Assembly: GCA_027923505.1 (NCBI GenBank)
Contig: BROI01000014.1
Span: 620,001 to 684,000, forward strand
DNA from: Mayamaea pseudoterrestris
Taxonomy: Eukaryota
DNA: 64,000 nt
Direction of reading: 5' to 3'
Shown here: piece after piece, positions 28,414-62,624 of the stretch
How positions within the stretch are numbered: the first letter of the stretch is position 1
How the letters are laid out: each line of letters opens with the position of its first letter
Made by a program: the position numbers and the translations under genes
The notes under the pieces: model-generated
Databases searched by the model: none
The model's input: the letters and a program-made list of their open reading frames with translations, nothing else
What the model was told of the DNA's origin: nothing

Positions 28414-30036
28414 TTAAACAAAATACTCTCCATTGATATTGCGAGCATAACCTATTCCAGCTGTAATTATATAAAATGAGTTGGATGAGACAAGTGAGCA
28501 AGTGGGGAGCAAAAGAGCACAATATCTTCTCAAGCTAAGCACTTGAAGACTTACGCGTCCCGAAGAGAATTCTCGAGCTCAATACACCGTCGATCATGGT
28601 CATGTTCCGTTGCAAATCCTTCAAGCACATTGCCTTTCCATCTTCATGCTTTGCTGGGTCAATGTCGATCACGTTGTAGGCAATGTTTCCGCGACTCTGG
28701 TTGATCTGCTGAGCAATATTGACGCCGGCAACAGCGCAGCAATCTGTAATCTTTGACAATACTCCAGGAATATTCTTGTTGACGACAGTCAGCCGGATAT
28801 GCGCCTCTTCTCGCTCTGGCATGCTGACATTAGGAAAGTTCACAGAGTTGCGAATCGTTCCGTGCTCAATGTATTGGCGAATCGTTTCTGCGGCCATGGC
28901 AGCCGCTTCGTCTTCGGCCTCTTCTGTAGAGGCACCAAGGTGTGGAAGAACAATGGACTTTTCGTGGTCCCACAAAATGTCATCCGGAAAGTCCGTCACG
29001 TACCGGCAAGTGCTTCCAGTGTCAAGGTAGTCCTTCATGGCGGCCGAGTCGACCAATTCACCACGGGCAAAGTTTAACAAGACGGCATCCTGCTTGAAAT
29101 GAGCAATCACATCGGCGCCAATGATTCCATGCGTGCCTCCTTCGTCCATGGTTCCTTTAATGTAGGGAATGTTTAAACTAATGTAATCCGCAGTCGCCAC
29201 GGCCGAAGCAATCGAGTCCGTCAAGATGGTTTCACGCGGAAGCTTCAACGCCGACTGTACCGAGAGACCCGGGTCATAGCCCTGCACTTTCATGCCAAGA
29301 GCGGATGCATCTCTTGCTGTTGCAGCTCCAATGTGTCCCAATCCAATGACGGCTAGCGTCTTGCCCTTGATTTCGCGACCGCCAAACATTGCCTTGTCCT
29401 TTTCAACACGCTCCTTGGCCAAGCCTTGCGACCCCAGCACTTTCATATGGTTGATTCCATCAACCACTCGTCTACTTCCAAGCAGCATGCCGCAAAGAAT
29501 CAACTCCTTGACAGCATTCGCATTCGCACCAGGTGTATTGAAGACTGGGATACCAAGTTCCGTCATGCGTGCCACTGGAACATTGTTGGTTCCAGCTCCG
29601 CATCGCGCAATGGCTCGCACCGAAACGTCCACCTCTGACTCTTGGAGCTTGTGCGACCGCAGCAGCAAGGCATGGGCAGGGCCAGCCGCGTCGGAAGCGG
29701 CGCTCACAGCGTAGAGTGTTTCGGGGAATCGAGCTAAGCCAACTGGCGAGATTTTGTTGAAGGTTTGGATGGCGTACTTTCCCGGTTTAATGTAGTCTAA
29801 AGAAATGATTGACGTAGTTTTAGAAACATTGCAATGCCTTCGCTCTTATCTGAATTCTTTATCGTCAGTATTCACTCACCTTGAATGTCCGTCACGTTCC
29901 AGCCCGATGTGTAATGGTCGACGTCGCAAGGAATTGGGCTCCAGCCTTCCGACAGGGAACTCATGCCCCGATAGGACGCACAGCGAAGGGCCGTCCTGGC
30001 CGACTGTCGCGAAAGGCTAGCCATCAAGAGACTCAT
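28414..30036 (-). CDS. serA: D-3-phosphoglycerate dehydrogenase, paralog A; 3 exons (introns 29879-29797 and 28554-28461)
   Basis: Motifs FNKISPVGLARF, AIARCGAGTNN, GLGHIG, NFARG and PHLGAST plus an ACT domain. The spliced end FGTPGIGYARNINGEYFV* matches paralog B. Mitochondrial-like presequence. Confidence 0.9.
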
Positions 30037-30373: not shown

Positions 30374-31903
30374 ATGTTGACGTCTCGTCCATTCGCCAAG
30401 CTCGCACGCTCCTCGGCCGGACGGACTGCATGCCTTTCATCGCACCGCTCCTTCTCCTCCATTGAGGTGGAACGCATTGAAGTCGAGCATGGCCGCGGGC
30501 AATGGAAAACCTACGGCGACGTTTCCAACTACACCCCCGGCAAGTACCAAGTCAAGACTTTCAACAAGATTAGTCCACTTGGATTGGCTAGGTTTCCGAC
30601 GGAGAAATACGAGATTCGTACCGACAAGCAGGAGGCGAGAAATGCGCATGCCATTATGCTGCGGTCGCACAAGTTGCAGGAGGACGAAGTGCCTCATACG
30701 GTGCGAGCGATTGCCAGGTACGAATAGCAATGATGAAGCTTGGATTGAGACTTGTGTGTGCAGCTGTGGATACAGCCACTTACCGAATCCTTATGTAATT
30801 CATTTCATGACAGATGCGGTGCAGGAACCAACAACATTCCAGTTGCTCGAATGACGGAACTTGGCATTCCAGTATTCAACACACCAGGAGCTAACGCCAA
30901 CGCTGTCAAGGAGCTTGTCTTGTGTGGCATGCTTCTGGGGAGTCGCCGTGTTGTGGACGGCATTAACCACATGGAAGAGCTGGGCAAGGCTGGAACGGCC
31001 AAGGAACGTGTCGAAAAGGACAAGGCCATGTTTGGTGGAAGGGAAATCGCTGGCAAAACATTAGCGGTTATTGGCTTGGGGCATATTGGAGCTGCCACGG
31101 CTCGGGATGCGTTTGCGCTTGGCATGAAGGTCAAGGGATATGACCCCGGCCTCAGTGTCAAATCCGCCCTTCAGCTGCCAAAGGACTTGGAGCTGTCGTC
31201 GTCCATTGTCGCTGCAGTCAAGGATGCCGATTACATTAGTATCAATATTCCATACATCAAGGGAGAGGGTGGAACACATGGTATCATTGGCGCTGATGTC
31301 ATTTCACACTTTAAATCGGATGCCGTCTTGCTAAATTTTGCACGTGGCGAGCTTGTGGATTCTGCGGCCATGAAGGACTTTTTAGACTCGTCTGCGGCAG
31401 GCCGATACGTTTCCGATTTCCCAGATGATTTGCTTTGGGACCATGCCAACGCAGTCATCCTGCCTCACTTAGGTGCATCGACCGAGGAAGCGGAAGATTC
31501 GGCTGCGGCCATGGCGGCAGATACAATCCGAGCCTTTCTGCAAACTGGAACAATCAAGAACTCTGTCAATTTCCCCGATACTGAGCTTGGACAGCTCACT
31601 ACTGGAACAACGGTGCGGTTTACCATTGTTAACAAGAACATCCCTGGTATGCTTTCCAAGATAACGGAGAAGTTTGCTGCAGAAGGCCTCAACATTCTGC
31701 AGCAGGTGAATCACTCTCGGGGCGACATTGCTTACAACGTTGTAGACATTGATACCTCGACACAAGACGATGTTCGCAGTTTCAAGTCTATACAAGAGAA
31801 GATCACCATGCTGGAAGGTGTTCTCAGCAGTCGCGTCATCTTTGGCAAACTTCCGCCAGGCACAGGCTACGCAAAGAACTTGGATGGAGAATACTTTGTA
31901 TAG
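30374..31903 (+). CDS. serA: D-3-phosphoglycerate dehydrogenase, paralog B; 2 exons (intron 30718-30813)
   Basis: Same motif set as paralog A; the splice restores AIAR|CGAGTNN; presequence MLTSRPFAKLARSS...HRSFS. Confidence 0.92.
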
Positions 31904-34631: not shown

Positions 34632-34774
34632 ATGAACAATAACAACCACCAAGCCGGCAGCAGCGCCGATCAATCGGCTCTCTCCTTGCTTGTCAACGCG
34701 GCGGAAGGTAGCCGCGATGCTCGTTCGCAGCAGGAGAGTATGCAGCAACATCACCAGCAGCAACAGCACCTCCA

Positions 34775-34813
<39 letters not shown>

Positions 34814-36635
34814 ATCCTTCGCCAACCAGCTACGCCAGCAAAGCCTTGGTCGTGATCAAGGCTTGTCACTGGAGGAGCAGTTGCTGCTGCAGCAGCAGCT
34901 GCAAGGTGCTTCCTTTGGCGGCGGAGGAGGAGGTTCCATGAACCTTTTGAACCAGCTGCGCGAGCAGAATCTGTTTAGTCAGTACGGGCAGCAGCAACAA
35001 CATCAGCAGCAGCAACAGCAACAACTTGCAATGCTACTTGGGCTAGGAGGTGGACAAGGTTTGGGAGGAGGGCATTCAGCTGATGTTCATTCGGCACTGG
35101 CGGCTCAGTTGCGCCAGCAGGCGCAGCAGCAACAGCAGCAGCAGCCGCAGTTCACATCGGCTGATTTGTTGGCGTTGAGTCGGTCGGGTGGACTTGGAGG
35201 GCTCTCTGGAATTCTTGGAAACGGAGGAGGCCTTGGAGCAGGTGGCGCGAGCAGCTTTGCCACTGAACTAGAAGGGTTACAGAGGTTGGAAGAGTTGGAG
35301 CGTCGTCAGCGACTCTTGGCCGCAGCAGCGGCTGGAAACGGAGGTTTGCCGCAAGGTCCAGTTGGGATTGGCAGCATGGTTCGAAACGAGCATATTGATC
35401 CAAATGGGTCGCCCATGTTGATGCCAAAGATGAATCCAGAAGATTCCCGTCCTCCTGTTCCCACACGTCCCATTTCGTCAGTCAACGTTGGGTCGGCCCG
35501 TAAGAAACTTCCTGGCGCGGACCTTGTCGGCGGCGTCATGAAACCTTCGTCGAACGGCGGCCTTGGTGCAATCGCGTCTGCCGATGACAACAAGGAAGAG
35601 TTGGAAAAGGCTCCTGGATCAGTCATTGTCCCATGTCGTGCCCGTGGCATGGTACGTTGGACATGTTCTGCCTTGAGTGATGATTACGTACCAATTTGCG
35701 CGTATGTTAACCAAGTTGCATTCCCTTTTTTACAGCCCATGGACCACAACTTTAAAACAGCTTACTTTGTAATTCCCGAGAACGTCAAGCATGGCGAGGA
35801 GCTCATTTGCTCGTATTTTGCCTGCCGCAACGCTGGGATCAAGTTTCGCTATTGCTCGCACTGCAAGGTCCCCGTCGCGAAACGTAACTTTCGTAAGCGT
35901 CACAAGCATGGTGGCCAAGATGTTGCTCAGCTTCCGGGCGAAGATTCGGATGGCGAAGAAGAGATGGCTGCTGTCAAGAAGGGAATTCCCTCACAGATCA
36001 TGGCCGGTCACAAGGGCGAAGAGGTCGAGGCAGATGGCATTTCGTCGCAGAGCACCGACTCCAACCAGGGCAAAGCCGTAGGTCTGGCTCATTCAGCCGT
36101 TCGAAACTTTGGGAACTCCAAGAAGCAGGCGGCCGCTGCTATGGCTATGCCAGTTCCACTTGCCAAAGATATGGGTTCGCGCAAGGCAACTTCGGAACGC
36201 GAGATGCGTTGGTTGACTCTTTTGACGAGGCGCCCGGCAACGAAGGACGGCGACGCCATGTCTGGGTGGTTGATGGAAGTACTGGCGGTGAGTGATCTTG
36301 ACACGCCGCTCCAGCAGCCTGGTCAAGAAGGCGACGCTGTTCTCGTTTCGGAAGAGCCCAACAAGCTGCCCGCCGTTCCTGCGAAAGAGGATGTCGACAC
36401 TGCATCTAGCGAGGAATACAACTCGTCCAGTGATGAATCGTCTAACAAGCTGCAGGAGAAGCCAACGTCGTTTGATGAAGTGGCCAGAAAGCGTCCGACG
36501 GAAATGATTGACGATGCAGTGGGCGCGCCTCCGCCGTCGGGTGAAGGCAGCAACTTTGCCAGTGGCAGTTTTGCCGCTTGGAAGGAGCGAAAGAAACAGA
36601 AGAAGCAAGACAAATCTGGCTCTGATGAGGCTTAG
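34632..36635 (+). CDS. PolyQ/Gly-rich protein with a Cys/His domain (putative lineage-specific transcription regulator); intron 35652-35735
   Basis: Q-runs at the N-terminus; spliced domain PCRARGM|PMDHNFKTAYF...CSYFAC...FRYCSHCKVPVAKRNFRKRH; basic NLS-like C-terminus. Confidence 0.75.
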
Positions 36636-36784: not shown

Positions 36785-37618
36785 TCATTCACGTAGAGAG
36801 CTGAGGAATATAAAATCATTACCAAGTCGATGAGACGTGGATTTAGCCGACAAGTCCAGTGGCCGAGCTCCGTACATCGGCGCAATTCCATGGCTTAATA
36901 ATTTAGGAGCGACCGTAACACAAAGTACATCCACCAAATTATTGTTGAATAGACTTGAGATGACTTGAGCGCCTCCTTCCACCATTAGCGTCTTGATGTC
37001 ATGGCGAAGCCACAGCTGAGCGAGCGCCTCCTTGATGTCGATTCTTCCGTCGGGCCCGCAAGGACACGGACAAAGTCGGACATTCGCCGGGAGAATGCTC
37101 ATAGAGTCAGCCGCTTGCTGACTGCAGCATACAATAAGACTCTCTACCCTCAGACATTCTTTCATTGATCTTAAAGAATGGAGGTTTGAATCGAGAGCGA
37201 CTGGAATTGGTTGTTGACGAGCTACACTTGAATGCGGATTCCAGAGTCGATTGTTTAGTCTTGGATTGTCCAAAGCAAGAGTTCTTCCTCCTATTAGTAT
37301 ACCGTCATGTAAAGAACGAATCGCATGTGTCAAGCGCATTGATTCTTCGCCGCTGAGTGGATAGTTGCTCGTCGTCTCAGATTTGGACGCATCCTTGAAA
37401 GGAGCCAACATTCCATTCAAGCTTTGAGCGAATGAGACTGTGATGATAGGAAGTGTGTTTTCGTTTCGTTCATTGGCGACAAGCTTATGCATGTTCTTCA
37501 TCTGATCAAGAATGTCGTCAATAGTGCGATCGCAGCAGCTGCTTCTCGGGTCGACAGCTTCGGCCATTGTGATATGACACACACCGAGAAATAGAAAGAT
37601 CAATATGACGCCAGACAT
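36785..37618 (-). CDS. RibD C-terminal-domain (Rib7-like) pyrimidine reductase
   Basis: Motifs ITVSFAQSLNG, THAIRSLHDGILIGGRT, DNPRLNNR, LMVEGGAQVI and VTVAPKLL; hydrophobic N-terminus. Start codon uncertain. Confidence 0.85.
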   Translation of the reverse strand: MSGVILIFLFLGVCHITMAEAVDPRSSCCDRTIDDILDQMKNMHKLVANERNENTLPIITVSFAQSLNGMLAPFKDASKSETTSNYPLSGEESMRLTHAIRSLHDGILIGGRTLALDNPRLNNRLWNPHSSVARQQPIPVALDSNLHSLRSMKECLRVESLIVCCSQQAADSMSILPANVRLCPCPCGPDGRIDIKEALAQLWLRHDIKTLMVEGGAQVISSLFNNNLVDVLCVTVAPKLLSHGIAPMYGARPLDLSAKSTSHRLGNDFIFLSSLRE

Positions 37619-37814
37619 TCTGCAGGCCAACTGGATACATAGTGGATCATGGTAACACCAATTTTGCAACTGCTTTGATACCGGAAAGCGTACTTGTATC
37701 GATTGATTGATTACTGTACAACAACATCATGCTTGCTGATGTCGAAACCAATAAAGGTCGCGCGATTGGAGAAGATTGTCGCACAGGTTTTAGCGATTAT
37801 GGAAAGCTATCAAT

Positions 37815-40800
37815 GCCTTGACATTCAAACGCCCATAAAACATGCCATGTATACACCCAAATCATGCCAGAATGGTGCCAACATCATTATTCTGTCTGCG
37901 CTACATGATAGTATGCATGATGGGTGCCCTGGTAGACTGCAATGTGATTGGTGACAAGTTGTCACCAGTCTCAGCCTGCAGATGCCGTGACATTCAATTG
38001 CCCATAAAACATGCCATGTATACACCCAAATCATACCAGAATGCTGCCACCATCATTGTTCCGTCTGCGCTACAAGATGTTATGCTTGGTGGCTGCCCTA
38101 GTAGACTGCAATTTGATTGGTGACAAGATGTCACCAGTCTCAGCCCACAGATGCCATGACATTCAGACGCCCCCTACAGCAAGCCCGGTAGGTGCCCAAA
38201 TTACACCAGAATGGTGCCAACATCATTTCTCAGGCTGCGCTACAAGATTGTAGGCATGGCTGGTGTCTCAGGGGATGGCAATGTATTTGGTGACAACTTG
38301 TCACCAGTCTCAGCCCGCATATGCCATAACATTCAGACACACCTACAGCAAGCCCGGTAGGTGCCCAAATTACACCAGAATAGTGCCAACATCATTATTC
38401 AGGCTGCGCTACAAGATGGTAGGCTTGGCTGGCGTCTCAGGGGATGGCAATGTATTTGGTGACAACTTGTCACCAGTCTCAGCCCGCAGATGCCATGACA
38501 TTCAGACACACCTACAGCAGGCCCTGTAGGTGCCCAAATTACACCAGACTGGTGCCAACATCATTTTTGAGGCTGCGCTACAAGATGGTAGGCTTGGCTG
38601 GTGGGTCTCAGGGGATGGCAATGGATTTGGTGTCAACTTGTCACCCGTCTCAGCCCGCATATGCCATAACATTCAGACACACCTACAGCAAGCCCGGTAG
38701 GTGCCCAAATTACACCAGAATGGTGCCAACATCGTTATTCAGGCTGCGCTACAAGATGGTAGGCTTGGCTAGTGTCTCAGGGGATGGCAATGGATTTGGT
38801 GACAACTTGTCACCAGTCTCAGCCTGCAGATGCCATGACATTCAAACGCCCCTACAGCAAGCCCTGTAGGTGCCCAAATTACACCAGAATGGTGCCAACA
38901 TCATTATTCAGGCTGCGCTACAAGATGGTAGGCTTGGCTGGTGTCTCAGGGGATGGCAATGTATTTGGTGACAACTTGTCACCAGTCACAGCCCGCAGAT
39001 GCCATAACATTCAGACGCCCCTACAGCAGGCCCGGTAGGTGCCCAAATTACACCAGAATGGTGCCAACATCATTATTCAGGCTGAGCTACAAGATGGTAG
39101 GCTTGGCTGGTGTCTCAGGGGATGGCAATGTATTTGGTGACAACTTGTCACCAGTCACAGCCCGCAGATGCCATAACATTCAGACGCCCCTACAGCAAGC
39201 CCGGTAGGTGCCCAAATTACACCAGAATGGTGCCAACATCATTATTCAGGCTGCGCTACAAGATGGTAGGCTTGGCTGGTGTCTCAGGGGATGGCAATGT
39301 ATTTGGTGACAACTTGTCACCAGTCACAGCCCGCAGATGCCATAACATTCAGACGCCCCTACAGCAGGCCCGGTAGGTGCCCAAATTACACCAGAATGGT
39401 GCCAACATCGTTATTCAGGCTGCGCTACAAGATGGTAGGCATGGCTGGTGTCTCAGGGGATGGCAATGTATTTGGTGACAACTTGTCACCAGTCTCAGCC
39501 CGCAGATGCCATGACATTCAGACACACCTACAGCAGGCCCGGTAGGTGCCCAAATTACACCAGAATGGTGCCAACATCATTATTATGGCTGCGCTACAAG
39601 ATGGTAGGCTTGGCTGGTGTCTCAGGGGATGATAATGTATTTGGTGACAACTTGTCACCAGTCTCAGCCCGCAGATGCCATGACATTCAGACACACCTAC
39701 AGCAGGCCCTGTAGGTGCCCAAATTACACCAGAATGGTGCCAACATCATTTCTCAGGCTGCGCTACAAGATGGTAGGCATGGCTGGTGTCTCAGGGGATG
39801 GCAATGTATTTGGTGACAACTTGTCACCAGTCACAGCCCGCAGATGCCATAACATTCAGACGCCCCTACAGCAGGCCCGGTAGGTGCCCAAATTACACCA
39901 GAATGGTGCCAACATCATTATTCAGGCTGAGCTACAAGATGGTAGGCTTGGCTGGTGTCTCAGGGGATGGCAATGTATTTGGTGACAACTTGTCACCAGT
40001 CTCAGCCCGCAGATGCCATGACATTCAGACACACCTACAGCAAGCCCGGTAGGTGCCCAAATTACACCAGAATAGTGCCAACATCATTTTTCAGGCTGCG
40101 CTACAAGATGGTAGGCTTGGCTGGCGTCTCAGGGGATGGCAATGTATTTGGTGACAACTTGTCACCAGTCTCAGCCCGCAGATGCCATGACATTCAGACA
40201 CACCTACAGCAGGCCCTGTAGGTGCCCAAATTACACCAGAATGGTGCCAACATCATTTTTGAGGCTGCGCTACAAGATGGTAGGCTTGGCTGGTGTCTCA
40301 GGGGATGGCAATGTATTTGGTGACAACTTGTCACCAGTCTCAGCCTGCAGATGCCATGACATTCAGACACACCTACAGCAAGCCCGGTAGGTGCCCAAAT
40401 TACACCAGAATGGTGCCAACATCATTATTCAGGCTGCGCTACAAGATGGTAGGCTTGGCTGGTGTCTCAGGGGATGGCAATGTATTTGGTGACAACTTGT
40501 CACCAGTCTCAGCCTGCAGATGCCATGACATTCAAACGCCCCTACAGCAAGCCCTGTAGGTGCCCAAATTACACCAGAATGGTGCCAACATCATTATTCA
40601 GGCTGCGCTACAAGATGGTAGGCTTGGCTGGTGTCTCAGGGGATGGCAATGTATTTGGTGACAACTTGTCACCAGTCACAGCCCGCAGATGCCATAACAT
40701 TCAGACGCCCCTACAGCAGGCCCGGTAGGTGCCCAAATTACACCAGAATGGTGCCAACATCATTATTCAGGCTGAGCTACAAGATGGTAGGCTTGGCTGG

Positions 40801-43800
40801 TGTCTCAGGGGATGGCAATGTATTTGGTGACAACTTGTCACCAGTCTCAGCCCGCAGATGCCATGACATTCAGACACACCTACAGCAGGCCCGGTAGGTG
40901 CCCAAATTACACCAGAATGGTGCCAACATCATTTCTCAGGTTGCGCTACAAGATGGTAGGCTTGGCTGGTGTCTCAGGGGATGGCAATGTATTTGGTGAC
41001 AACTTGTCACCAGTCTCAGCCTGCAGATGCCATGACATTCAAACGCCCCTACAGTGGCCCTGTAGGTGCCCAAATTACACCAGAATGGTGCCAACGTCAT
41101 TATTCAGGCTGCGCTACAAGATGGTAGGCTTGGCTGGTGTCTCAGGGGATGGCAATGTATTTGGTGACAACTTGTCACCAGTCTCAGCCCGCATATGCCA
41201 TAATATTCAGACGCCCCTACAGCAAGCCCGGTAGGCGCCCAAATTTCACCAGAATGGTGCCAACATCATTATTCAGGCTGCGCTACAAGATGGTAGGCTT
41301 GGCTGGTGTCTCAGGGGATGACAATGTATTTGGTGACAACTTGTCACCAGTCTCAGCCTCAGATGCCATGACATTCAGACACACCTACAGCAGGCCCTGT
41401 AGGTGCCCAAATTACACCAGAATGGTATTAACATCATTTCTCAGGCTGCGCTACAAGATGGTAGGCTTGGCTGGTGGGTCTCAGGGGATGGCAATGGATT
41501 TGGTGTCAACTTGTCACCAGTCTCAGCCCGCATATGCCATAACATTCAGACACACCTACAGCAAGCCCGGTAGGTGCCCAAATTACACCAGAATGGTGCC
41601 AACATCATTATTCAGGCTGCGCTACAAGATGGTAGGCTTGGCTGGTGTCTCAGGGGATGGCAATGTATTTGGTGACAACTTGTCACCAGTCTCAGCCTGC
41701 AGATGCCATGACATTCAAACGCCCCTACAGCAAGCCCTGTAGGTGCCCAAATTACACCAGAATGGTGCCAACATCATTATTCAGGCTGCGCTACAAGATG
41801 GTAGGCTTGGCTGGTGTCTCAGGGGATGGTAATGTATTTGGTGACAACTTGTCACCAGTCACAGCCCGCACATTCAGACGCCCCTACAGCAGGCCCGGTA
41901 GGTGCCCAAATTACACCAGAATGGTGCCAACATCATTATTCAGGCTGCGCTACAAGATGGTAGGCTTGGCTGGTGTCTCAGGGGATGGCAATGTATTTGG
42001 TGACAACTTGTCACCAGTCTCAGCCCGCAGATGCCATGACATTCAGACACACCTACAGCAGGCCCTGTAGGTGCCCAAATTACACCAGAATGGTGCCAAC
42101 ATCATTTTTGAGGCTGCGCTACAAGATGGTAGGCTTGGCTGGTGTCTCAGGGGATGGCAATGTATTTGGTGACAACTTGTCACCAGTCTCAGCCCGCAGA
42201 TGCCATGACATTCAAACGCCCCTACAGCAGGCCCTGTAGGTGCCCAAATTACACCAGAATGGTGCCAACATCATTATTCAGGCTGCGCTACAAGATGGTA
42301 GGCTTGGCTGGTGTCTCAGGGGATGGCAATGTATTTGGTGACAACTTGTCACCAGTCTCAGCCCGCAGATGCCATAACATTCAGACGCCCCTACAGCAAG
42401 CCCGGTAGGTGCCCAAATTACACCAGAATGGTGCCAACATCATTAATCAGGCTGCGCTACAAGATGGTAGGCTTGGCTGGTGTCTCAGGGGATGGCAATG
42501 TATTTGGTGACAACTTGTCACCAGTCTCAGCCTCAGATGCCATGACATTCAGACACACCTACAGCAGGCCCTGTAGGTGCCCAAATTACACCAGAATGGT
42601 ATTAACATCATTTCTCAGGCTGCGCTACAAGATGGTAGGCATGGCTGGTGTCTCAGGGGATGGCAATGTATTTGGTGACAACTTGTCACCAGTCTCAGCC
42701 CGCAGATGCCATGACATTCAAACGCCCCTACAGCAAGCCCTGTAGGTGCCCAAATTACACCAGAATGGTGCCAACATCATTTTTGAGGCTGCGCTACAAG
42801 ATGGTAGGCTTGGCTGGTGTCTCAGGGGATGGCAATGTATTTGGTGACAACTTGTCACCAGTCTCAGCCCGCGCAGATGCCATGACATTCAGAACACACC
42901 TACAGCAGCCCTGTAGGTCGCCCAAATACACCAGAATGGTGCCAACATCATTTTCAGGCTGCGCTACAAGATGGTAGGCTTGGCTGGTGTCTCAGGGGAT
43001 GGCAATGTATTTGGTGACAACTTGTCACCAGTCTCAGCCCGCAGATGCCATAACATTCAGACGCCCCTACAGCAAGCCTGGTAGGTGCCCAAATTACACC
43101 AGAATGGTGCCAACATCATTTCTCAGGCTGCGCTACAAGATGGTAGGCATGGCTGGTGTCTCAGGGGATGGCAATGTATTTGGTGACAACTTGTCACCAG
43201 TCTCAGCCCGCAGATGCCATGACATTCAGACGCACCTACAGCAGGCCCTGTAGGTGCCCAAATTACACCAGAATGGTGCCAACATCATTTTTCAGGCGGC
43301 GCTACAAGATGGTAGGCTTGGCTGGTGTCTCAGGGGATGGCAATGTATTTGGTGACAACTTGTCACCAGTCTCAGCCCGCAGATGCCATGACATTCAAAC
43401 AGCCTACATCAGGCCCTGTAGGTGCCCAAATTACACCAGAATGGTGCCAACATCATTTCTCAGGCTGCGCTACAAGATGGTAGGCTTGGCTGGTGTCTCA
43501 GGGGATGGCAATGTATTTGGTGACAACTTGTCACCAGTCTCAGCCCGCAGATGCCATGACATTCAGACACACCTACAGCAGGCCCTGTAGGTGCCCAAAT
43601 TACACCAGAATGGTGCCAACATCATTTCTCAGGCTGCGCTACAAGATGGTAGGCTTGGCTGGTGTCTCAGGGGATGGCAATGTATTTGGTGACAACTTGT
43701 CACCAGTCTCAGCCCGCAGATGCCATGACATTCAAACGCCCCTACAGCAAGCCCGGTAGGTGCCCAAATTACACCAGAATGGTGCCAACATCATTATTCA

Positions 43801-46800
43801 GGCTGCGCTACAAGATGGTAGGCTTGGCTGGTGTCTCAGGGGATGGCAATGTATTTGGTGACAACTTGTCACCAGTCTCAGCCCGCAGATGCCATGACAT
43901 TCAGACGCCCCTACAGCAAGCCCGGTAGGTGCCCAAATTACACCAGAATGGTGCCAACATCATTTTTAGGCTGCGCTACAAGATGGTAGGCTTGGCTGGT
44001 GTCTCAGGGGATGGCAATGTATTTGGTGACAACTTGTCACCAGTCTCAGCCCGCAGATGCCATGACATTCAGACACACCTACAGCAAGCCCGGTAGGTGC
44101 CCAAATTACACCAGAATGGTGCCAACATCATTTTTCAGGCTGCGCTACAAGATGGTAGGCTTGGCTGGTGTCTCAGGGGATGGCAATGTATTTGGTGACA
44201 ACTTGTCACCAGTCTCAGCCCGCAGATGCCATGACATTCAGACACACCTACAGCAAGCCCTGTAGGTGCCCAAATTACACCAGAATGGTGCCAACATCAT
44301 TTTCGAGGCTGCGCTACAAGATGGTAGGCTTGGCTGGTGTCTCAGGGGATGGCAATGTATTTGGTGACAACTTGTCACCAGTCTCAGCCCACAGATGCCA
44401 TGACATTCAGACGCCCCTACAGCAAGCCCGGTAGGTGCCCAAATTACACCAGAATGGTGCCAACATCATTTTTGAGGCTGCGCTACAAGATGGTAGGCTT
44501 GGCTGGTGTCTCAGGGGATGGCAATGTATTTGGTGACAACTTGTCACCAGTCTCAGCTCGCAGATGCCATGACATTCAGACGCCCCTACAGCAAGCCCGG
44601 TAGGTGCCCAAATTACACCAGAATGGTGCCAACATCATTTCTCAGGTGGCGCTACAAGATGGTAGGCTTGGCTGGTGTCTCAGGGGATGGCAATGTATTT
44701 GGTGACAACTTGTCACCAGTTTCAGCCCACAAATGCAATAACATTCTGACGCCCCTACAGCACCCAGCTCCCACTACGAGATGGTGCCAACATCATTATT
44801 GTCGCTACAAGATGGTAGGCTTGGCTGGTGTCTCAGGGGATGACAATGTATTTGGTGACAACTTGTCACCAGTCTCAGCCTGCAGATGCCATGACATTCA
44901 GACACACCTACAGCAGGCCCTGTAAGTGCCCAAATTACACCAGACTGGTGCTAACATCATTTTTGAGGCTGCGCTACAAGATGGTAGGCTTGGCTGGTGT
45001 CTCAGGGGATGGCAATGTATTTGGTGACAACTTGTCACCAGTCTCAGCCCACAGATGCCATGACATTCAGACGCCCCTACAGCAAGCCCGGTAGGTGCCC
45101 AAATTACACCAGAATGGTGCCAACATCATTTTTGAGGCTGCGCTACAAGATGGTAGGCTTGGCTGGTGTCTCAGGGGATGGCAATGTATTTGGTGACAAC
45201 TTGTCACCAGTCTCAGCCTGCAGATGCCATGACATTCAAACGCCCCTACAGCAAGCCCTATATGTGCCCAAATTACACCAGAATGGTGCCAGCATCATTA
45301 TTCAGGCTGCGCTACAAGATGGTAGGCTTGGCTGGTGTCTCAGGGGATGGCAATGTATTTGGTGACAACTTGTCACCAGTCTCAGCCTGCAGATGCCATG
45401 ACATTCAGAAACACCTACAGCAGGCCCTGCAGGTGCCCAAATTACACCAGAATGGTGCCAACATCGTTTTTGAGGCTGCGCTACAAGATGGTAGGCTTGG
45501 CTGGTGTCTCAGGGGATGGCAATGTATTTGGTGACAACTTGTCACCAGTCTCAGCTCGCAGATGCCATGACATTCTGACACACCTACAGCAGGCCCTGTA
45601 GGTGCCCAAATTACACCAGAATGGTGCCAACATCATTTCTCAGGTTGCGCTACAAGATGGTAGGCTTGGCTGGTGTCTCAGTGGATGGCAATGTATTTGG
45701 TGACAACTTGTCACCAGTCTCAGCCCGCAGATGCCATAACATTCAGACGCCCCTACAGCAAGCCTGGTAGGTGCCCTAATTACACCAGAATGGTGCCAAC
45801 ATCATTTTTGAGGCTGAGCTACAAGATGGTAGGAATGGCTGGTGTCTCAGGGGATGGCAATGTATTTGGTGACAACTTGTCACCAGTCTCAGCCCACAGA
45901 TGCCATGACATTCAGACGCCCCTACAGCAAGCCCGGTAGGTGCCCAAATTACACCAGAATGGTGCCAACATCATTTTTGAGGCTGCGCTACAAGATGGTA
46001 GGCTTGGCTGGTGTCTCAGGGGATGGCAATGTATTTGGTGACAACTTGTCACCAGTTTCAGCCCGCAAATGCAATAACATTCTGACGCCCCTACAGCAAG
46101 CCCGGTAGGTGCCCAAATTACACCAGAATGGTGCCAACATCATTATTCAGGCTGCGCTACAAGATGGTAGGCTTGGCTGGTGTCTCAGGGGATGACAATG
46201 TATTTGGTGACAACTTGTCACCAGTCTCAGCCCGCAGATGCCATGACATTCAGACACACCTACAGCAGGCCCTGTAGGTGCCCAAATTACACCAGAATGG
46301 TGCCAACATCGTTTTTGAGGATGCGCTACAAGATGGTAGGCTTGGCTGGTGTCTCAGGGGATGGCAATGTATTTGGTGACAACTTGTCACCAGTCTCAGC
46401 TCGCAGATGCCATGACATTCTGACACACCTACAGCAGGCCCTGTAGGTGCCCAAATTACACCAGAATGGTGCCAACATCATTTCTCAGGTGGCGCTACAA
46501 GATGGTAGGCTTGGCTGGTGTCTCAGGGGATGGTAATGTATTTGGTGACAACTTGTCACCAGTTTCAGCCCGCAAATGCAATAACATTCGCACCGGCCCG
46601 TAATCCAGAATGGTGCCAACATCATTATTCGGTCTGCTACAAGATGGTAGGCTTGGCTGGTTCTCAGGGAGACAAACTTGCACCCGCAGGTGCCATGACA
46701 TTCAGACACACCTACGAGGTGCCCAGTGTCTAAATTACACCAGAATGGTGCCAACATCGTTTTGAGGCTGCGCGACAAGATGGTAGGCTTGGCTGGTGTC

Positions 46801-49800
46801 TCAGGGGATGGCAATGTATTTGGTGACAACTTGTCACCAGTCTCAGCTCGCAGATGCCATGACATTCTGACACACCTACAGCAGGCCCTGTAGGTGCCCA
46901 AATTACACCAGAATGGTGCCAACATCATTTCTCAGGTGGCGCTACAAGATGGTAGGCTTGGCTGGTGTCTCAGGGGATGGCAATGTATTTGGTGACAACT
47001 TGTCACCAGTCTCAGCCCGCAGATGCCATGACATTCAAACGCCCCTACAGCAGGCCCTGTAGGTGCCCAAAATACACCAGAATGGTGCCAACATCATTAT
47101 TCAGGCTGCGCTACAAGATGGTAGGCTTGGCTGGTGTCTCAGGGGATGGCAATGTATTTGGTGACAACTTGTCACCAGTCTCAGCCTGCAGATGCCATGA
47201 CATTCTGACACACCTACAGCAGGCCCTGTAGGTGCCCAAATTACACCAAAATGGTGCCAACATCATTTCTCAGGTTGCGCTACAAGATGGTAGGCTTGGC
47301 TGGTGTCTCAGTGGATGGCAATGTATTTGGTGACAACTTGTCACCAGTCTAACCCCGCAGATGCCATGACATTCAAACGCCCCTACAGCAGGCCCTGTAG
47401 GTGCCCAAATTACACCAGAATGGTGCCAACATCTTTATTCAGGCTGCGCTACAAGATGGTAGGCTTGGCTGGTGTCTCAGGGGATGGCAATGTATTTGGT
47501 GACAACTTGTCACCAGTCTCAGCCCGCATATGCCATAATGTTCAGACGCCCCTACAGCAAGCCCGGTAGGTGCCCAAATTACACCAGAATGGTGCCAACA
47601 TCATTTTTGAGGCTGCGCTACAAGATGGTAGGCTTGGCTGGTGTCTCAGGGGATGGCAATGTATTTGGTGACAACTTGTCACCAGTCTCAGCCCGCAGAT
47701 GCCATGACATTCAGACACACCTACAGCAGGCCCTGTAGGTGCCCAAATTACACCAGAATGGTGCCAACATCATTTCTCAGGTTGCGCTACAAGATGGTAG
47801 GCATGGCTGGTGTCTCAGGGGATGGCAATGTATTTGGTGACAACTTGTCACCAGTCTCAGCCAGTAGATGCCATAACATTCAGACACACCTACAGCAAGC
47901 CCGGTAGGTGCCCAAATTACACCAGAATGGTGCCAACATCATTATTCAGGCTGCGCTACAAGATGGTAGGCTTGGCTGGTGTCTCAGGGGATGGCAATGT
48001 ATTTGGTGACAACTTGTCACCAGTCTCAGCCCGCAGATGCCATGACATTCAGACACACCTACAGCAGGCCCTGTAGGTGCCAAAATTACACCAGAATGGT
48101 GCCAACATCATTTTTGAGGCTGCGCTACAAGATGGTAGGCTTGGCTGGTGTCTCAGGGGATGGCAATGTATTTGGTGACAACTTGTCACCAGTCTCAGCC
48201 CGCAGATGCCATAACATTCAGACGATGGTGGTGCCTAAATTACACCAGAATGGTGCCAACATCATTTCTCACTGGGTTCACGGTCGAGGTTCACGCCTCG
48301 ATCGTCAGCGATTTCACTCATGTATGTGAGGATTCGGTCACAAGTGTGACTCAACCCTGCACAGGATTAAATGCATACAAAACACAGGTAGCTAACCGTC
48401 TTGTCATAAGACGCAGGTCAACTCAACTCAATAATATTGTGTCACAAATTTCACCAGAATGGTGCCAACATCATTAATCAGGCTGCGCTACAAGATGGTA
48501 GGCTTGGCTGGTGTCTCAGGGGATGACAATGTATTTGGTGACAACTTGTCACCAGTCTCAGCCCGCAGATGCCATAACATTCTGATGCCCCTACAGCAAG
48601 CCCGGTAGGTGCCCAAATTACACCAGAATGGTGCCAACATCATTTTTGAGGCTGCGCTACAAGATGGAAGGCTTGGCTGGTGTCTCAGGGGATGGCAATG
48701 TATTTGGTGACAACTTGTCACCAGTCTCAGCCATCAGATGCCATGACATTCAGACACACCTACAGCAAGCCCGGTAGGTGCCCAAATTACACCAGAATGG
48801 TGCCAACATCATTATTCAGGCTGCGCTACAAGATGGTAGGCTTGGCTGGTGTCTCAGGGGATGGCAATGTATTTGGTGACAACTTGTCACCAGTCTCAGC
48901 CCGCAGATGCCATGACATTCAGACACACCTACAGCAGGCCCTGTAGGTGCCCAAATTACACCAGAATGGTGCCAACATCATTTTTTCAGGCTGCGCTTCA
49001 AGATGGTAGGCTTGGCTGGTGTCTCAGGGGATGACAATGTATTTGGTGACAACTTGTCACCAGTCTCAGCCCGCAGATGCCATGACATTCAGACACACCT
49101 ACAGCAGACCCTGTAGGTGCCCAAATTACACCAGAATGGTGCCATCATCATTATTCAGGCTGAGCTACAAGATGGTGGGCTTGGCTGGTGTCTCAGGGGA
49201 TGGCAATGTATTTGGTGACAACTTGTCACCAGTCTCAGCTTGCAGATGCCATGACATTCAGACACACCTACAGCAGGCCCTGTAGGTGCCCAAATTACAC
49301 CAGAATGGTGCCAACATCATTATATAGGCTGCGTTACAAGATGGTAGGCTTGGCTGGTGTCTCAGGGGATGGCAATGTATTTGGTGACAACTTGTCACCA
49401 GTCTCAGCCCGTAGATGCCATGACATTCAAACACACCTAGCGGCCCTTAGTGCCCAATTCAGACATGGTGCCAACATCATTATTAAGGCGGGCTACAAGA
49501 TGGTAGGCTTGGCTGGTGTCTCAGGGGATGGCAATGTATTTGGTGACAACTTGTCACCAGTCTCAGCCCGCAGATGCCATGACATTCAGACACACCTACA
49601 GCAGGCCCTGTAGGTGCCCAAATTACACCAGAATGGTGCCAACATCATTATTCAGGCTGCGCTACAAGATGGTATGCCTGGCTAGTGTCTCAGGGGATGG
49701 AAATGATATTGGTGACAACTTGTCACCAGTCTCAGCCTGCAGATGCCATGACATTCAAACACACCTACAGCAGGCCCTGTAGATGCCCAAATTACACCAG

Positions 49801-50021
49801 AATGGTGCCAACATCATTGTTCCATCTGCGCTACAGGATGGTACGCCTGATGGGTGCCCTTGTGGACTCCAACACAATGTGACTGGTGAAAACTTCTCGG
49901 CATAAAACATGCCATGTATACATCCAAATTACACCAGAATGGTGCCAACATCCTTACTCAGTCTGCGCTACAAGATGGTATGCCTGATGGGTCTCAGCCC
50001 ACGGACACCAGCCTTGACATT
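37815..50021. repeat. Tandem satellite array, 169-bp monomer, ~72 copies
   Basis: Example monomer at 42141-42309 (GGTGTCTCAGGGGATGGCAATGTATTTGGTGACAACTTGTCACC...GGCTTGGCT). ORF-track starts recur every 169 bp; the edge units are diverged. Confidence 0.98.
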
Positions 50022-50612
50022 GAAGCACTACTCTCAATTGTGCAAACCTCTGTTTCTAGGAAAATAATTATCATATACCCTATGCTCTTTATGTCTGCTG
50101 CTGACTCAGCACAATAGTCTCATTCCCGACTGTTCCTTCATGATCACTGCTCGTATCGCTTATTTGCTTGCCCACTTGAAACTTAATGATGGATTTGCTC
50201 ATGCACTTGCCAACTGGCATCCAACACTCTCCTCCATGAGCACCTCCTAATTCTCTAAACTCTACAAAATTGCCGTGCATTGCCAGCTAGTTGGTGCTCT
50301 CCTCATCGCCGCTCTCCATCAAGAAACTGTACTGGTATAGATACATGTACAGTTCTTTAGGGATGAGACAAACTAAGCACTGGTCCAGACAAGCCACTGA
50401 ATATTTAGTTGGTGGATTGCAGTGGTAACGGAATGCGAAAGTGGACTTGTTCAGCTACAGTAATCATTTAGAAATGCGTGCCCATACCTTCAAACCAGAA
50501 AAAACCAGCCTTACTGTTAGGCAAATGAATGTACATTGGCTTGGCGCATACTTTGTTTATAGGTGACAAGTATTCAGTTGGCAGCGTATCTACCCATACA
50601 AACCAGACTTGC

Positions 50613-51818
50613 TTACCGTTCACGCTGATATCGTCCAGGTTTGACATCTTGCAGACGCTTCTGCAGCGCTTCTCGGCCGCCACCCTTTTCGTCCCAGTAC
50701 CGCAGCACCTGCTCACCTTTCACTTCTCCGCGTCGTGTATCCCATACAAGTTGAAAATCAACTTGCGGGTTCACCATGTGCAATTGCCGCTCGCGAGGCT
50801 TCCCAAGCGGATTGTGAATGTAGCGAACACCGTCGAAATCAAAATCTTTGGGTCTATGCGAGTGACCAAATATGTGCATGTGACGGCGGCCAGCAATCGG
50901 CAGAGAACGTAACTGTTGGCCAATGAGCTCGCTCCCTGCTACCTTGGCAAACTTGGCGGACATGTCGCCGGCGCCATGGTCGAGCCAATCCAGCGAAAAA
51001 TCATCCTGCTCCAAGTCAATCCAATCGGGTAAAGACTGCTTGTTTGGCAAAAAATGTGACACCGTCATTAATGCTGCTGAAGAATACTCATCAATTAGTG
51101 TGAATTGTCGCGTATTTCGCTCCAGCAAGTGCTCCGTCAAGCCAATGGGAATGCGAGCAGTAGACTCTATTTCGCTCGGGGGGGAATTGCGCCATCGACA
51201 TCGTAAAAAATCCACCCAAGGCCAGTGCCGAAAACCTTTTGAAAGATCATTGGAAAAACATAGACTCCCATCGTACCAGCTTTGTATTGGTAGTACCAAA
51301 AGCGACTGTCTGCCGTTGACAAGACAAGGATCCACCATGACGCCAAGCGTTCGACACTCATCGTAAACTTGTTCCATTTTCTCAAGCGAGTCAAACTCGT
51401 CTTGCTTGTTCAGCCAAGCCTCGTGGTTGCCACAGATGAAAAAGACATGACATCGGTCTTGCATGTAGCGCATCGACCTTCGAAAAACATCCATGTCGTG
51501 CGAAATATCACCAGCCACAATGAGCAAGTCTCGTTTCGTCCAATGATGCTCATCCATTTTCTCTCGAAGCCACTTTAGATTGTCGACGTGATCCGTATGC
51601 AAGTCGCTGAGGCAAAATACTCGGTCAACGTTGTTTAAACAATGATGGAGTGGAAGGCTTGATTCTTCGTCGACTGTGGACAATGTGGACGTGGTGTCGT
51701 GGAGTGCATAAATGCGTCTACTAATAAGTCGTTTGCTCGTCAGCGATACATGTTCAAATGAATGTGTCTGGTCTAGAAGAAGCGTCAGATAGCTCAGATA
51801 TAGCCATGGTATTTGCAT
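50613..51818 (-). CDS. Calcineurin-like metallophosphoesterase with a probable bipartite presequence
   Basis: Motifs SDLH, AGDIS, GNHE, SHFLP and GHSH; signal peptide from MQIPWLYL ending THS-F. Confidence 0.85.
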   Translation of the reverse strand: MQIPWLYLSYLTLLLDQTHSFEHVSLTSKRLISRRIYALHDTTSTLSTVDEESSLPLHHCLNNVDRVFCLSDLHTDHVDNLKWLREKMDEHHWTKRDLLIVAGDISHDMDVFRRSMRYMQDRCHVFFICGNHEAWLNKQDEFDSLEKMEQVYDECRTLGVMVDPCLVNGRQSLLVLPIQSWYDGSLCFSNDLSKGFRHWPWVDFLRCRWRNSPPSEIESTARIPIGLTEHLLERNTRQFTLIDEYSSAALMTVSHFLPNKQSLPDWIDLEQDDFSLDWLDHGAGDMSAKFAKVAGSELIGQQLRSLPIAGRRHMHIFGHSHRPKDFDFDGVRYIHNPLGKPRERQLHMVNPQVDFQLVWDTRRGEVKGEQVLRYWDEKGGGREALQKRLQDVKPGRYQRER

Positions 51819-59314: not shown

Positions 59315-62300
59315 ATGGCGACACAAGCACGAGGCCTTCAAAATTTTATTTCTGACTTGCGCAATGCAAAGGGAAAGGTAAGAAGAGTAACCGGCGAAGA
59401 CAACAAGTCGATCCGACGCCATGGTGGCCGATCATCGCCGTGCAGCCTTGCGCGCAGCGGTACTGAAAACGAGTTGTCAGCCAATGAGAAGACACCCTTT
59501 GGATCGACTTTGGCATTTGTATGGATGAATGACTTATGCCTCGAAGTTTCTTTGAAGAAAATAGCCAGATTTGGTCATTATAACCCTTGCGAGACCACCA
59601 TGATGGCGGACATGTTTACGATGCTTTTGCTTAACCAGCGCTTGCTCTACCCTTTTTAGGACGACGAGAAGAAGCGCGTCGACAAGGAGCTTGCTAATAT
59701 ACGGAAGAATTTTACGCCAAAGGGTGGGAAATTGGCTGACGACGGAAGCAATCCGAGTCTGTCGTCGTATCAACGCAAAAAATATGTTTGGAAGCTTGTT
59801 TACATTCATGTGCTTGGATACGATGTCGATTTTGGCCACGCAGAGGTTTTAGTGTTAGTGAAGTCTCCAAAGTACTCGGAGAAGCTTGTTGGATACACGG
59901 CGTTGAGCCTGTTAATGCGCGGTGACGATTCTTCGATAGGCTCGATTCGAAGCACCATTGTAAAAGACTTGACGCAACCGACTGCCGCCAGCTCGAAAAG
60001 CGGCGTCCCTCCAGATGCAGCACAATCACTGGCTTTATGTTGTACTGCAAATATTGTTGGGCTTGAGTTGATCCAGTCGCTGCATGTCGAAGTTCAGCAA
60101 ACGCTTGTAGCCAAAGCCACGAGCTCTTACGTCAAGAAGAAAGCTGCACTTTGTCTTTTGCGACTGGCACGTACCAGTGCCAAGCTTATACAAAGCAGAG
60201 AATTTGCGCCGCAAGTTGCGCAGCTGCTTCAAGATCGTCATCTAGGTGTGCTGACGAGCACCATGGGTCTTTTGTACGGATTGGCAACGCAGGTTCCTTC
60301 CGAGTATGTTAGTCTCATACCATATGCGGTTCACATTCTTGGGATGCTAGTCTTGAAAAAGGCATGCGCTCGCGAATACTTGTACTATCGCACTCCAAGT
60401 CCATGGCTGCAGATTAAGCTGCTGAAGTTTTTGCAACTGTACCCACAGGCGCTAGTTTCTAATGGCGAGGAAGAATCGGCCAGCAACGGTGGCGGTGCCC
60501 ACATTTCGCAATTGACGAGCATTATTTCTAAGATATTGACCGAAACAGATGTATCTGACTCGATCAATAAATCGAATGCGGATCACGCTGTGTTGTTCGA
60601 AGCAGTGAATTTGATCGTATGTTGGGGGTCCTCAAGTCCACCTCAATTGCGAGAAGGAGCGATGAAGCTGCTTGGTAAATTCATTTCTGTCCGCGAGCCA
60701 AACATTCGATACCTTGGACTGATGACGATGGCAAAATTGGCGCATTTAGAAGGCAGCATTGAGGCAATCAAGAAACATCAAGCCACGGTCCTCGTTTCGT
60801 TGAAAGACGCTGATATTAGCGTTCGTCGCCGAGCATTGGATCTTTTGTTCGTCATGTGCGATACGGATAATGCCGAGAGGATTGTTGACGAGCTTGTCGC
60901 TCACCTCGCCCAGGCCGATGCTGCAATCCGCGAAGAGATGGTGCTCAAAATAGCAATTCTCGCTGAGAAGTACGCGACTGATCTTCGCTGGTATGTTGAC
61001 ACGATATTAAAGCTCATCTCAATCAGTGGCGACTACGTCAGCGACGCTATTTGGCATCGAGTCGTTCAAATTGTTACAAATCACCCTCAAGGGGACTTGC
61101 AGGCCTACACGGCTGCCACGCTTTTAGTTGCGACAAGTCCTCGTCGGTGCCACGTGACAACTGTGCGTGTTGCGGCCTACATACTCGGCGAATTTGGGTT
61201 TTTGATTGCGGAACGACCCGGCATGAGTGGAGAGGAGCAGTTTAGGATCCTACACCAGCACTGGCCCACAGCTGATAGCCAGACGCGGTCTGTTCTGTTG
61301 ACAACATATGCCAAGCTGTCAAACTTGTACGAGGAATGTCGACCATTGGTTGCGCCAGTTTTTGCAAGATGTAGCAATAGTGTCGAAGTGGAAGTTCAAC
61401 AACGCGCCGCTGAGTATTCTTCGATGAGGGAAGCCTTCAATCCCGAGGCAGTGGAAGATTTGCTTCGCGAGATGCCTCCATTTGAAGAAAAGAAAACGAG
61501 CGCATTAGAGCAGCGACTTCGAGAAAAGGAAGGCGAAGAAAGTGCTGCTGTCCAAAAAGCTCAAAGGCCGAGCGCGGCACAACGAAAACGAGCTGCGCAA
61601 AGCGCTGCAGCGGCGAAAGCAGTCGAAGAAGTGGCCAAGGCGGAGCTTCAAGAAGAGCCCGACGACCCCGTCAGCCCCATTAGTGGTAAGTATTCTAGGA
61701 ATTGGATGCTATTTGAAAGCAAGCAGTGCTTATCTTACGTTGTTTCTTATTGAACCATTAGACGGAAGCCCAGGAACTGCAAAAGATTTCAATCGCACCG
61801 AAAAAATTGGTATTCCGAAAGAAGTCATACCAGCCATGCGAAAAGCCTTTTCGAATCTCTGCACATCGCCATCTGGAGTACTGTTTGAAAATGCGCTCCT
61901 TCAAGTTGGTGTGAAGCATGAATACGTCGGTGCTCAAGGCCGCGTTTCCATATTTTTTGGCAATTTGAGCAAAGCACCTTTGCACAACTTCCGCGCAATT
62001 ATTGATGAAGTCGATCATCTTAATATTCAAAAGCAAGGAACACAAGGTCTCCTCGATCCGGACGACGACGGTGGCTGCACCGTAGCCGTTAGAACCCAAG
62101 CGAAGTTGCTTTTGATTGTCGAATGTGCCGCACCATTTGATGATGCTCCTGCCATGCGCGTGGCATTTACAACTGATGGTGGCGAGTACCATGAGTATCC
62201 ATTGCGCCTTCCTATCGTCGCAACTTGCTTCATGGAACCTGTTTCCCTTGAGCCTCAGCCATTTATGCAGCGATGGAAGAGTCTAGAGGGTCAGGATCGC

Positions 62301-62624
62301 GAGTGTCAAGAGGTCATAAAGGCGCCGCCAAATGCTCCTCCCATTGACGAAGAGTACATGGAACGAATCTCGGCAATTGTCACGGACGGACTAAAATTCG
62401 GGCGTTGTCCTGGTTGCGATCCAACACCCTGGACCGTCTCGGGAGCTGCGACATTTCGGACTGTGGCAAAAGATGCGAATGGCAACAACATTAATGTCGG
62501 CTGTTTGGTTCGCGTTGAAGCCAATCCGCAGGCTGGAGCATTCCGAGTCACAACACGAACCCTGCATCCGTTATGCTCCAAAGCGATTAAGAACGTTGCA
62601 CTTGTGAGCATAAAACTGGCTTAA
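59315..62624 (+). CDS. AP2A: AP-2 complex subunit alpha; 3 exons (introns 59378-59659, 61686-61761)
   Basis: RGLQNFISDLRNAK, KRVDKELANIR, YQRKKYVWKL, PWLQIKLL and NIRYLGL, followed by the appendage domain GVLFEN...QVG. Confidence 0.95.

Follow-up and report, generated by a model that had tools for sequence, protein, structure and literature searches.

A 12-kb array of a 169-bp satellite, probably heterochromatic, between two genes of the diatom Mayamaea pseudoterrestris

A 64,000-nucleotide stretch of the diatom Mayamaea pseudoterrestris (GenBank contig BROI01000014.1, positions 620,001 to 684,000; hereafter the window, whose own coordinates are used throughout) contains a genuine tandem array of 169-bp non-coding units, flanked on either side by an intact housekeeping gene. 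The array behaves like ordinary satellite DNA, and we consider it probable that it is an interstitial, CG-methylated heterochromatic array of a major satellite that is also located at subtelomeres, without a cellular function beyond that of a small heterochromatin island. Three sets of data bear on this proposal: the internal organization of the array, its dinucleotide composition, and the abundance and neighborhood of the same unit in public sequencing runs.

Tandem Repeats Finder (TRF) reported a period of 169 in three blocks, at 37813-46589 (52.1 copies, 93% matches), 46683-48223 (9.1 copies) and 48445-49843 (8.3 copies). The array was phased with an 18-nt anchor of our own, whose 69 occurrences define 68 spacings; 54 of these are exactly 169 and 63 fall within 168-171, the others being 159 (twice), 153, 278 and 363. 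Moreover, a 21-nt core of the unit was matched 71 times with up to three mismatches (0.01 matches expected by chance), always on the plus strand and always within 37867-49954. The whole array spans 12,207 bp, which after subtraction of a 174-bp foreign insert corresponds to about 71 unit-equivalents, in good agreement with the roughly 72 head-to-tail monomers of 169 bp that an initial annotation of this DNA had placed at 37815-50021. A search with a consensus trimer revealed no copy of the unit in the window outside the array. The GC content is 51.5% for the unit consensus and 51.0% for the array, compared to 49.3% for the remaining window; measured over 100 bp, the array ranges from 37 to 58% and never falls below 37%. 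The value of 52% counted by hand for 42141-42309 in the initial annotation was reproduced as 52.07%.

No coding or structural RNA content was recognized in the units. Stop-to-stop frames across the array are typically 91 amino acids long, with a maximum of 204, and stops occur in all frames. Rfam gave no match for the whole window at the gathering threshold and none at E<=1 for 41800-42700, a tRNA search found none, and no RNA run was present among the listed public runs containing words of the unit. The surroundings are as gene-dense as previously described, the nearest genes lying 196 bp and 590 bp from the array borders (Table 1), and the array has an internal position, with genes over at least 14 kb to its left and to its right.

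Unit alignments were carried out with 66 of the 68 inter-anchor intervals, the 278-bp and 363-bp intervals being left out. Identity to the consensus was 91-99% in 63 of the 66 aligned units; the outliers were the left-edge unit at 37959 (76.9%), a truncated unit in the interior at 44710 (77.2%) and, one unit inward from the right edge, a shortened one at 49392 (85.2%). Among core units, the mean pairwise identity was 94.5%, and it remained flat at 93.9-94.3% across lags 1-12. No higher-order repeat was detected in the array: near-identity runs of two units were found only five times at any lag, and the TRF rows at 338/339 scored no better than those at period 169. On the basis of ten polymorphic positions, at least five types of unit can be told apart, and these are irregularly interspersed. 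A set of "old" states is common to the first two units on the left and, on the right, to the truncated last unit and the 3' half of the one before it; the set includes a different sequence at the position of the second of two dyad symmetries described below. Hence, a younger homogenized core is present inside an older small array (Table 1), and homogenized units with diverged edges are the mark of concerted evolution in satellite DNA. Unequal exchange and gene conversion, acting within the array and perhaps with other arrays, could have produced this homogeneity. Exchange of this kind homogenizes the central part of an array and seldom extends to its ends, and would therefore give a mosaic core of young units bordered on both sides by old, decayed ones.

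A foreign insert of 174 bp interrupts the array (Table 1). It has no second copy in the window, no Rfam match (E<=1, 48200-48520) and no inverted ends, and instead of a mobile element it may be filler DNA left by the repair of a break.

The observed/expected ratio of CpG is 0.27 in the array, compared to 1.04 in the left flank and 1.05 in the right flank. Conversely, TpG reaches 1.58 and CpA 1.84 in the array versus 1.19 and 1.18, respectively, elsewhere in the window, and GpC takes values of 1.16 and 1.19. In 500-bp windows, the CpG depletion starts at about 37.5 kb and stops at about 50.5 kb, so that its ends lie within about 500 bp of the array borders, and only one of 306 flank windows of 169 bp was as poor in CpG as the consensus. 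The combination of CpG loss with TpG and CpA excess fits the footprint expected of long-term CG methylation: deamination of 5-methylcytosine would explain the loss of CpG and the gain of TpG and CpA inside the array but not outside it. In Phaeodactylum, CG methylation targets repeats and depends on DNMT5a (PMC9998398). We propose that the array is packaged as CG-methylated heterochromatin, with roughly one nucleosome per unit, in which case its local function would most likely be none beyond a small heterochromatin island.

In the unique right flank (50001-50500) the CpG depletion extends about 300-500 bp past the last recognizable unit, with ratios of 0.43 at 50001 and 0.75 at 50251, and there it could be caused by spreading methylation or by fully decayed units. 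On the left side it stops within about 300 bp, before the coding sequence of the neighboring gene.

Two dyad symmetries were detected per unit. Dyad 1 is a perfect 19-bp palindrome, with 9-nt arms around a 1-nt center, that is exact in 66 units, including one of the old type; in the phasing used, the unit ends in perfectly complementary 9-nt arms that lie 150 nt apart. Dyad 2 consists of 9-nt arms with a 6-nt spacer; among 75 pattern matches, the arms are complementary at no fewer than seven of nine positions in 58 and at all nine in 20, and this dyad grows from 7 to 9 pairs through the variant states that young units have at positions 44 and 59 of the consensus. The two dyads observed per unit compare with 0.0056 expected per shuffle, and two were reached in 6 of 5000 shuffles. 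The folding of one unit as single-stranded DNA was unremarkable (z = -1.35, with 17 of 200 shuffles folding equally well). The consensus has no 10-bp WW periodicity, and the unit has no internal sub-repeat. Both dyads may be protein-binding or cruciform-prone sites, and as such they may help to recruit heterochromatin.

Searches for these motifs in other collections did not reveal relatives of the unit. An exact 26-base pattern comprising the palindrome and adjoining bases had no locus in Joint Genome Institute (JGI) metagenome contigs, and two scans of prokaryote genome contigs gave no locus either. The sole match of the 21-nt core in the JGI metagenomes (locus L001) has just those 21 bases in common with the unit and was attributed to chance. 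Viral contigs carrying the palindrome were also discarded as relatives, as the common sequence at their 38 loci covers only 18-35 nt around the palindrome. As a separate observation, the 19-nt palindrome pattern is present once or twice in each of these 38 viral stretches (L002-L039), which looks like more than chance would give for 18 specified bases and may correspond to a recurrent phage sequence.

Words sampled from the unit were found in 20 public runs from 14 studies, and at least half of the words were present in four runs. Contigs of the runs X1, X2, X4 and X5, of which X2 belongs to a different study from X1, were aligned to 37200-38640, a segment comprising the left flank and about five units. 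Matching contig records amounted to 60,101 of 555,133 in X1, 11,938 of 182,933 in X2, 624 of 812,177 in X4 and 517 of 324,751 in X5. The left junction of the array was recovered over 629 bases with no difference in X1 contigs and over 645 bases with one difference in X2 contigs, the depth of the single-copy flank being 164.4 and 31.7, respectively. In X1 the summed depth per unit position reached 5.2-5.5 million, or 3.2-3.4 x 10^4 times the single-copy flank, and in X2 0.66-0.68 million, or 2.1 x 10^4 times; these ratios are rough, as depth is not a copy number. Integrated over all bins, and provided that every contig is placed once, the depth corresponds to about 17 Mb in X1 and 10.6 Mb in X2. 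As a rough figure, the unit family comprises on the order of 10^4-10^5 copies, or megabases of DNA. A single locus genome-wide, which the initial annotation had listed among the findings that would refute its proposal, is contradicted by a unit depth of 2.1-3.4 x 10^4 times that of the flank. For the old-type edge units, the X1 depth in bin 38082-38130 (20,273/164.4) corresponds to about 10^2 copy-equivalents, a figure that might, speculatively, rise with the number of arrays. Eleven metagenome runs from soil, rhizosphere or leaf litter also contained words of the unit, in small shares of 0.14-0.19 of those sampled.

The loose ends of unit-bearing contigs mark junctions to other sequence. In two X4 contigs and one X5 contig, CCCTAA repeats are found 5' of the unit; the three junctions have identical orientation and unit phase (window-equivalent ~37841-37844), and the telomere-adjacent unit in these contigs carries old-type letters. 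Further loose ends in X4 and X5, at window-equivalent 38265, 38404 and 38455, are formed by a putative transposase adapter of the sequencing library, remnants of which thus occur in these contig sets. CCCTAA is the telomere repeat reported for a diatom in a Fistulifera preprint (10.1101/2021.11.10.468027). The trait of subtelomeric satellites was found in the family, through these telomere-joined copies (three contigs); the array of the window has no telomere repeat (no match to two CCCTAA units with up to one mismatch) and has genes on both sides. The contigs of X4 and X5 do not cover the unique flank 37200-37787, a gap that proves nothing about species or locus.

Several points weigh against a methylated, interstitial array of an abundant subtelomeric satellite. 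Regarding abundance, summed contig depth does not measure copy number, contigs placed at two positions (27,877 in X1) may inflate the integrated figure, and at such depth sequencing errors add to the number of distinct contigs counted. The window itself may have been assembled from the X1 sample, which would leave only X2 as independent. Regarding the telomere junctions, X4 and X5 share a study with X1 and reach 0.27% and 0.08% of the satellite depth of X1, a level compatible with carry-over between libraries, so that the junctions, seen in three contigs only, may belong to the same organism and not to relatives; among the loose ends listed for X1 and X2 there was no telomere junction. With respect to methylation, the four CpG positions of the consensus vary only about 3-fold more per site than the others, a difference based on small numbers, and the CpG depletion is an evolutionary footprint which, given the common descent of the units, is effectively one observation amplified and not 71. 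Finally, the array lies 196 bp from the start codon of an apparently intact gene, which is unexpected if heterochromatin spreads.

The initial annotation had put forward a centromeric or heterochromatic locus. Its heterochromatic half is indirectly supported by the CpG ratio of the array and by the TpG and CpA excess, whereas nothing in GC content, repeat organization, neighboring genes, family size or telomere-joined copies speaks for its centromeric half. For the nucleosome-phasing domain that it also suggested, the 169-bp unit has a suitable length, but the consensus shows no 10-bp WW periodicity. Nevertheless, among the alternatives considered, a satellite-type regional centromere survives best, although we regard it as unlikely. 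It supposes that the 169-bp family is centromeric in this diatom lineage and that the array serves as the centromere of its chromosome or is a remnant of pericentromeric DNA, with CENH3 nucleosomes phased on the units and the palindromes proposed as a CENP-B-box-type or non-B-DNA signal. The unit has the length of a nucleosome and far exceeds every other tandem repeat seen in abundance, and the most abundant tandem repeat is reportedly centromeric in many animals and plants, as Melters et al. are said to have found. A young core with old edges resembles the layered organization of alpha-satellite centromeres, the dyad symmetries are conserved, no low-GC region of centromere type exists elsewhere in the 64 kb, and telomere adjacency would be compatible with telocentric chromosomes. 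On the other hand, the diatom centromeres characterized or predicted so far are short, low in GC and non-repetitive. Those of Phaeodactylum need at least about 500 bp below 33% GC and have no repeats (Diner preprint, 10.1101/096016); the predicted ones of Fistulifera solaris are 1.4-2 kb long, have 36-42% GC and are not highly repeated (10.1101/2021.11.10.468027); and an oomycete centromere paper summarizes diatom centromeres likewise (PMC7082073). The array resembles them in organism group and in being non-coding intergenic DNA, but it is 12 kb long and wholly repetitive as opposed to 0.5-3 kb and non-repetitive in these accounts, and its 51% GC, slightly above its surroundings, contrasts with less than 33% in Phaeodactylum and 36-42% in Fistulifera. 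As GC is at least 37% over any 100 bp of the array and at least 39.6% over any 500 bp of the window (minimum at 28071), the array is not a centromere of the low-GC type known from diatoms, and there is none in the window. In addition, the array has no higher-order repeat, a typical although not universal trait of satellite centromeres, it has genes 196 and 590 bp away and no transposons nearby, its 12 kb represent about 0.1-0.3% of the family, so that most copies are elsewhere, and the only outside junctions identified are to telomere repeats. A bolder version of the idea, which we find similarly improbable, is a lineage that gave up, or never possessed, Phaeodactylum-style centromeres and in which megabases of methylated, palindrome-bearing satellite act as an epigenetic centromere, possibly telocentric, the array being an active or recently inactivated one. 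If true, no satellite centromere would have been described in diatoms before it, and the type of centromere would have changed within pennate diatoms.

Somewhat less probable still is an internalized chromosome end, in which the array and the genes to its right were once arranged as telomere, satellite and genes, and were later fused or translocated with loss of the telomere repeats. The polarity of the X4 and X5 contigs is in line with this, with telomere repeats on the 5' side of the unit (plus strand) and an old-type unit next to them; the leftmost units of the array are also old-type, and only about 27-30 bp separate its left border (37815) from the phase of the telomere junctions. Against it, no telomere remnant was detected in the window (two CCCTAA units, up to one mismatch), and old-type units are present at the right edge too, as expected of any array homogenized in its middle. 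In any case, such an event would not be recent, because contigs of both X1 and X2 have the left junction.

An origin from a transposon appears about as doubtful as an internalized end. The unit would have begun as a small non-autonomous element, or as an internal repeat of a larger one, that transposed widely and was then amplified locally. Its 9-nt complementary ends, 150 nt apart, the presence of the family at many places and the location of the array in an otherwise ordinary intergenic region are all consistent with this. However, none of 28 scanned open reading frames (ORFs) in the window is transposon-related, neither a terminal inverted repeat nor a duplicated target site was seen in the flanks (common flank repeats are at most 11 nt, as expected by chance), there is no solo unit elsewhere in the window and no sub-repeat in the unit, and the viral contigs have only the palindrome in common with it (38 loci, longest match 35 nt).

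Least likely of all is an assembly artefact, a collapsed or expanded array or a false join of two satellite-bearing contigs: although the abundance of the family could let assemblers mis-join through the satellite, and contigs were compared with the left junction only (a point that also counts against the preferred reading), that junction appears in contigs of two studies with zero and one differences, all 71 cores have one orientation where the joining of two chromosome ends would give a head-to-head arrangement, matching old-type units bracket both edges, and the divergence among units (94.5% identity) is enough for long reads to resolve them.

We compared the preferred interpretation, a methylated interstitial array of an abundant satellite, with systems known from other organisms. 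In the literature searched no diatom satellite DNA family is described, the coverage being incomplete for subscription journals and excluding supplements. Satellites of insects and other organisms have reportedly been reviewed as forming euchromatic (interstitial) arrays besides large heterochromatic blocks. The diatom array is like them in its nucleosome-length, non-coding, head-to-tail units, in its concerted evolution and in being part of a major family with small intergenic arrays, and differs in its 51% GC, as it is not AT-rich. It shares with alpha-satellite-type repeats of animals and plants the approximately nucleosome-sized unit, the young core with older edges and the short dyads, but it lacks higher-order repeats, is not AT-rich and has gene-dense flanks.

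The closest described case in stramenopiles is the pair PpSat1 and PpSat2 of Phytophthora parasitica (PMC7290008). There, PpSat1 is the most abundant family and has copies beside telomere repeats, PpSat2 forms arrays in gene-rich DNA, and some arrays are broken by foreign inserts, as in the diatom. Two families are involved there, whereas the diatom family alone combines telomere association with a gene-rich site; PpSat1 arrays lie among transposons and the diatom array does not, and the likeness is one of organization, no relation in sequence being expected. Plant subtelomeric satellites are likewise said to form arrays that directly abut telomeres. The same arrangement is described for subtelomeres of Chlamydomonas reinhardtii (PMC8287924), and copies of the diatom family resemble such arrays in being joined to telomere repeats in a fixed orientation and phase. 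The array of the window differs from subtelomeric satellites in its internal position, amid genes for at least 14 kb in either direction, and in having no telomere repeat.

To our knowledge, model diatoms have compact genomes with transposons and essentially no satellite DNA, and short, low-GC, non-repetitive centromeres. Against this background, a megabase-scale satellite that borders telomeres and has a methylation-type footprint is unexpected, the array itself being ordinary. If the proposal is correct, chromosome architecture differs widely within diatoms, and for species of this kind a large share of the repeats may be missing from the assemblies and from estimates of genome size. The unit could provide a handle on heterochromatin, chromosome ends and possibly centromeres, as a probe for fluorescence in situ hybridization, as a target for CENH3 or 5-methylcytosine assays, or through its 19-bp palindrome as a bait.

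Table 1. Positions of the satellite array, its parts and its neighbors in the window.
Feature	Position	Strand	Remarks
RibD_C-domain (riboflavin pyrimidine reductase-like) gene, left neighbor	36785..37618	-	intact; ATG 196 bp from array
Whole satellite array	37815..50021	+	~71 unit-equivalents of 169 bp, single orientation
Old-type edge units L1, L2	37815..38152	+	L1/L2-phase unit (anchor 37959) 77% identical to consensus; different sequence at dyad 2 position
Homogenized young core	38153..46589	+	mosaic of at least 5 variant types, without regular higher-order period
Decayed unit(s)	46553..46830	+	several indels; anchor spacing 278; TRF split point
Second young-unit run	46831..48271	+	TRF, anchors
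Unrelated 174-bp insert	48272..48445	+	bracketed by 35-nt direct duplication of unit (48237-48271, 48446-48480; 91% alike)
Third young-unit run	48446..49743	+	TRF, anchors
Right edge	49744..50021	+	hybrid unit (young 5' half, old-type 3' half), then truncated old-type unit with deletions
Dyad 1, example	42167..42185	.	spans unit junction in phasing used
Dyad 2, example	42050..42073	.	9-nt arms, 6-nt spacer
Calcineurin-like metallophosphoesterase gene, right neighbor	50613..51818	-	stop codon 590 bp from array

The genes around the array are of an ordinary kind. The best named match of the left neighbor is a Seminavis protein with 40% identity. A Pfam scan of 28 ORFs of at least 150 amino acids assigned housekeeping domains to 21 of them and no match to 7; these domains include NOL10, sorting nexin, DnaJ, OBG GTPase, CAAX protease, aldo-keto reductase, DEAH helicase and adaptin, and transposon-related domains were found in none of the 28. 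For the AP-2 alpha ORF at 59915-61753, the encoded protein shows 83% identity to one of Epithemia and 80% to those of Nitzschia and Cylindrotheca, its best matches reaching 92-93%. These protein matches assign the window to a raphid pennate diatom.

Some minor features of the window were also recorded. AP-2 alpha is split over two plus-strand ORFs, 59915-61753 (Adaptin_N) and 61836-62624 (Alpha_adaptin C domains), and an OBG-type GTPase over two minus-strand ORFs, 10738-11847 (GTP1_OBG/MMR_HSR1) and 9932-10792 (DUF1967), in both cases likely due to short introns rather than to broken genes. Two paralogous, divergent ORFs for D-2-hydroxyacid dehydrogenases with an ACT-like tail (phosphoglycerate-dehydrogenase-like), at 28535-29566 (minus strand) and 30851-31903 (plus strand), lie about 1.3 kb apart in what looks like an inverted gene duplication. 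A (GCA)23 run at 34742-34810 (81% matches) produces a long low-complexity tract in a 667-amino-acid, plus-strand ORF without a Pfam match (34632-36635). Finally, a 41-bp unit is repeated 2.1 times at 15056-15140 (88% matches), in an intergenic position upstream of the ORF at 15305-16546.

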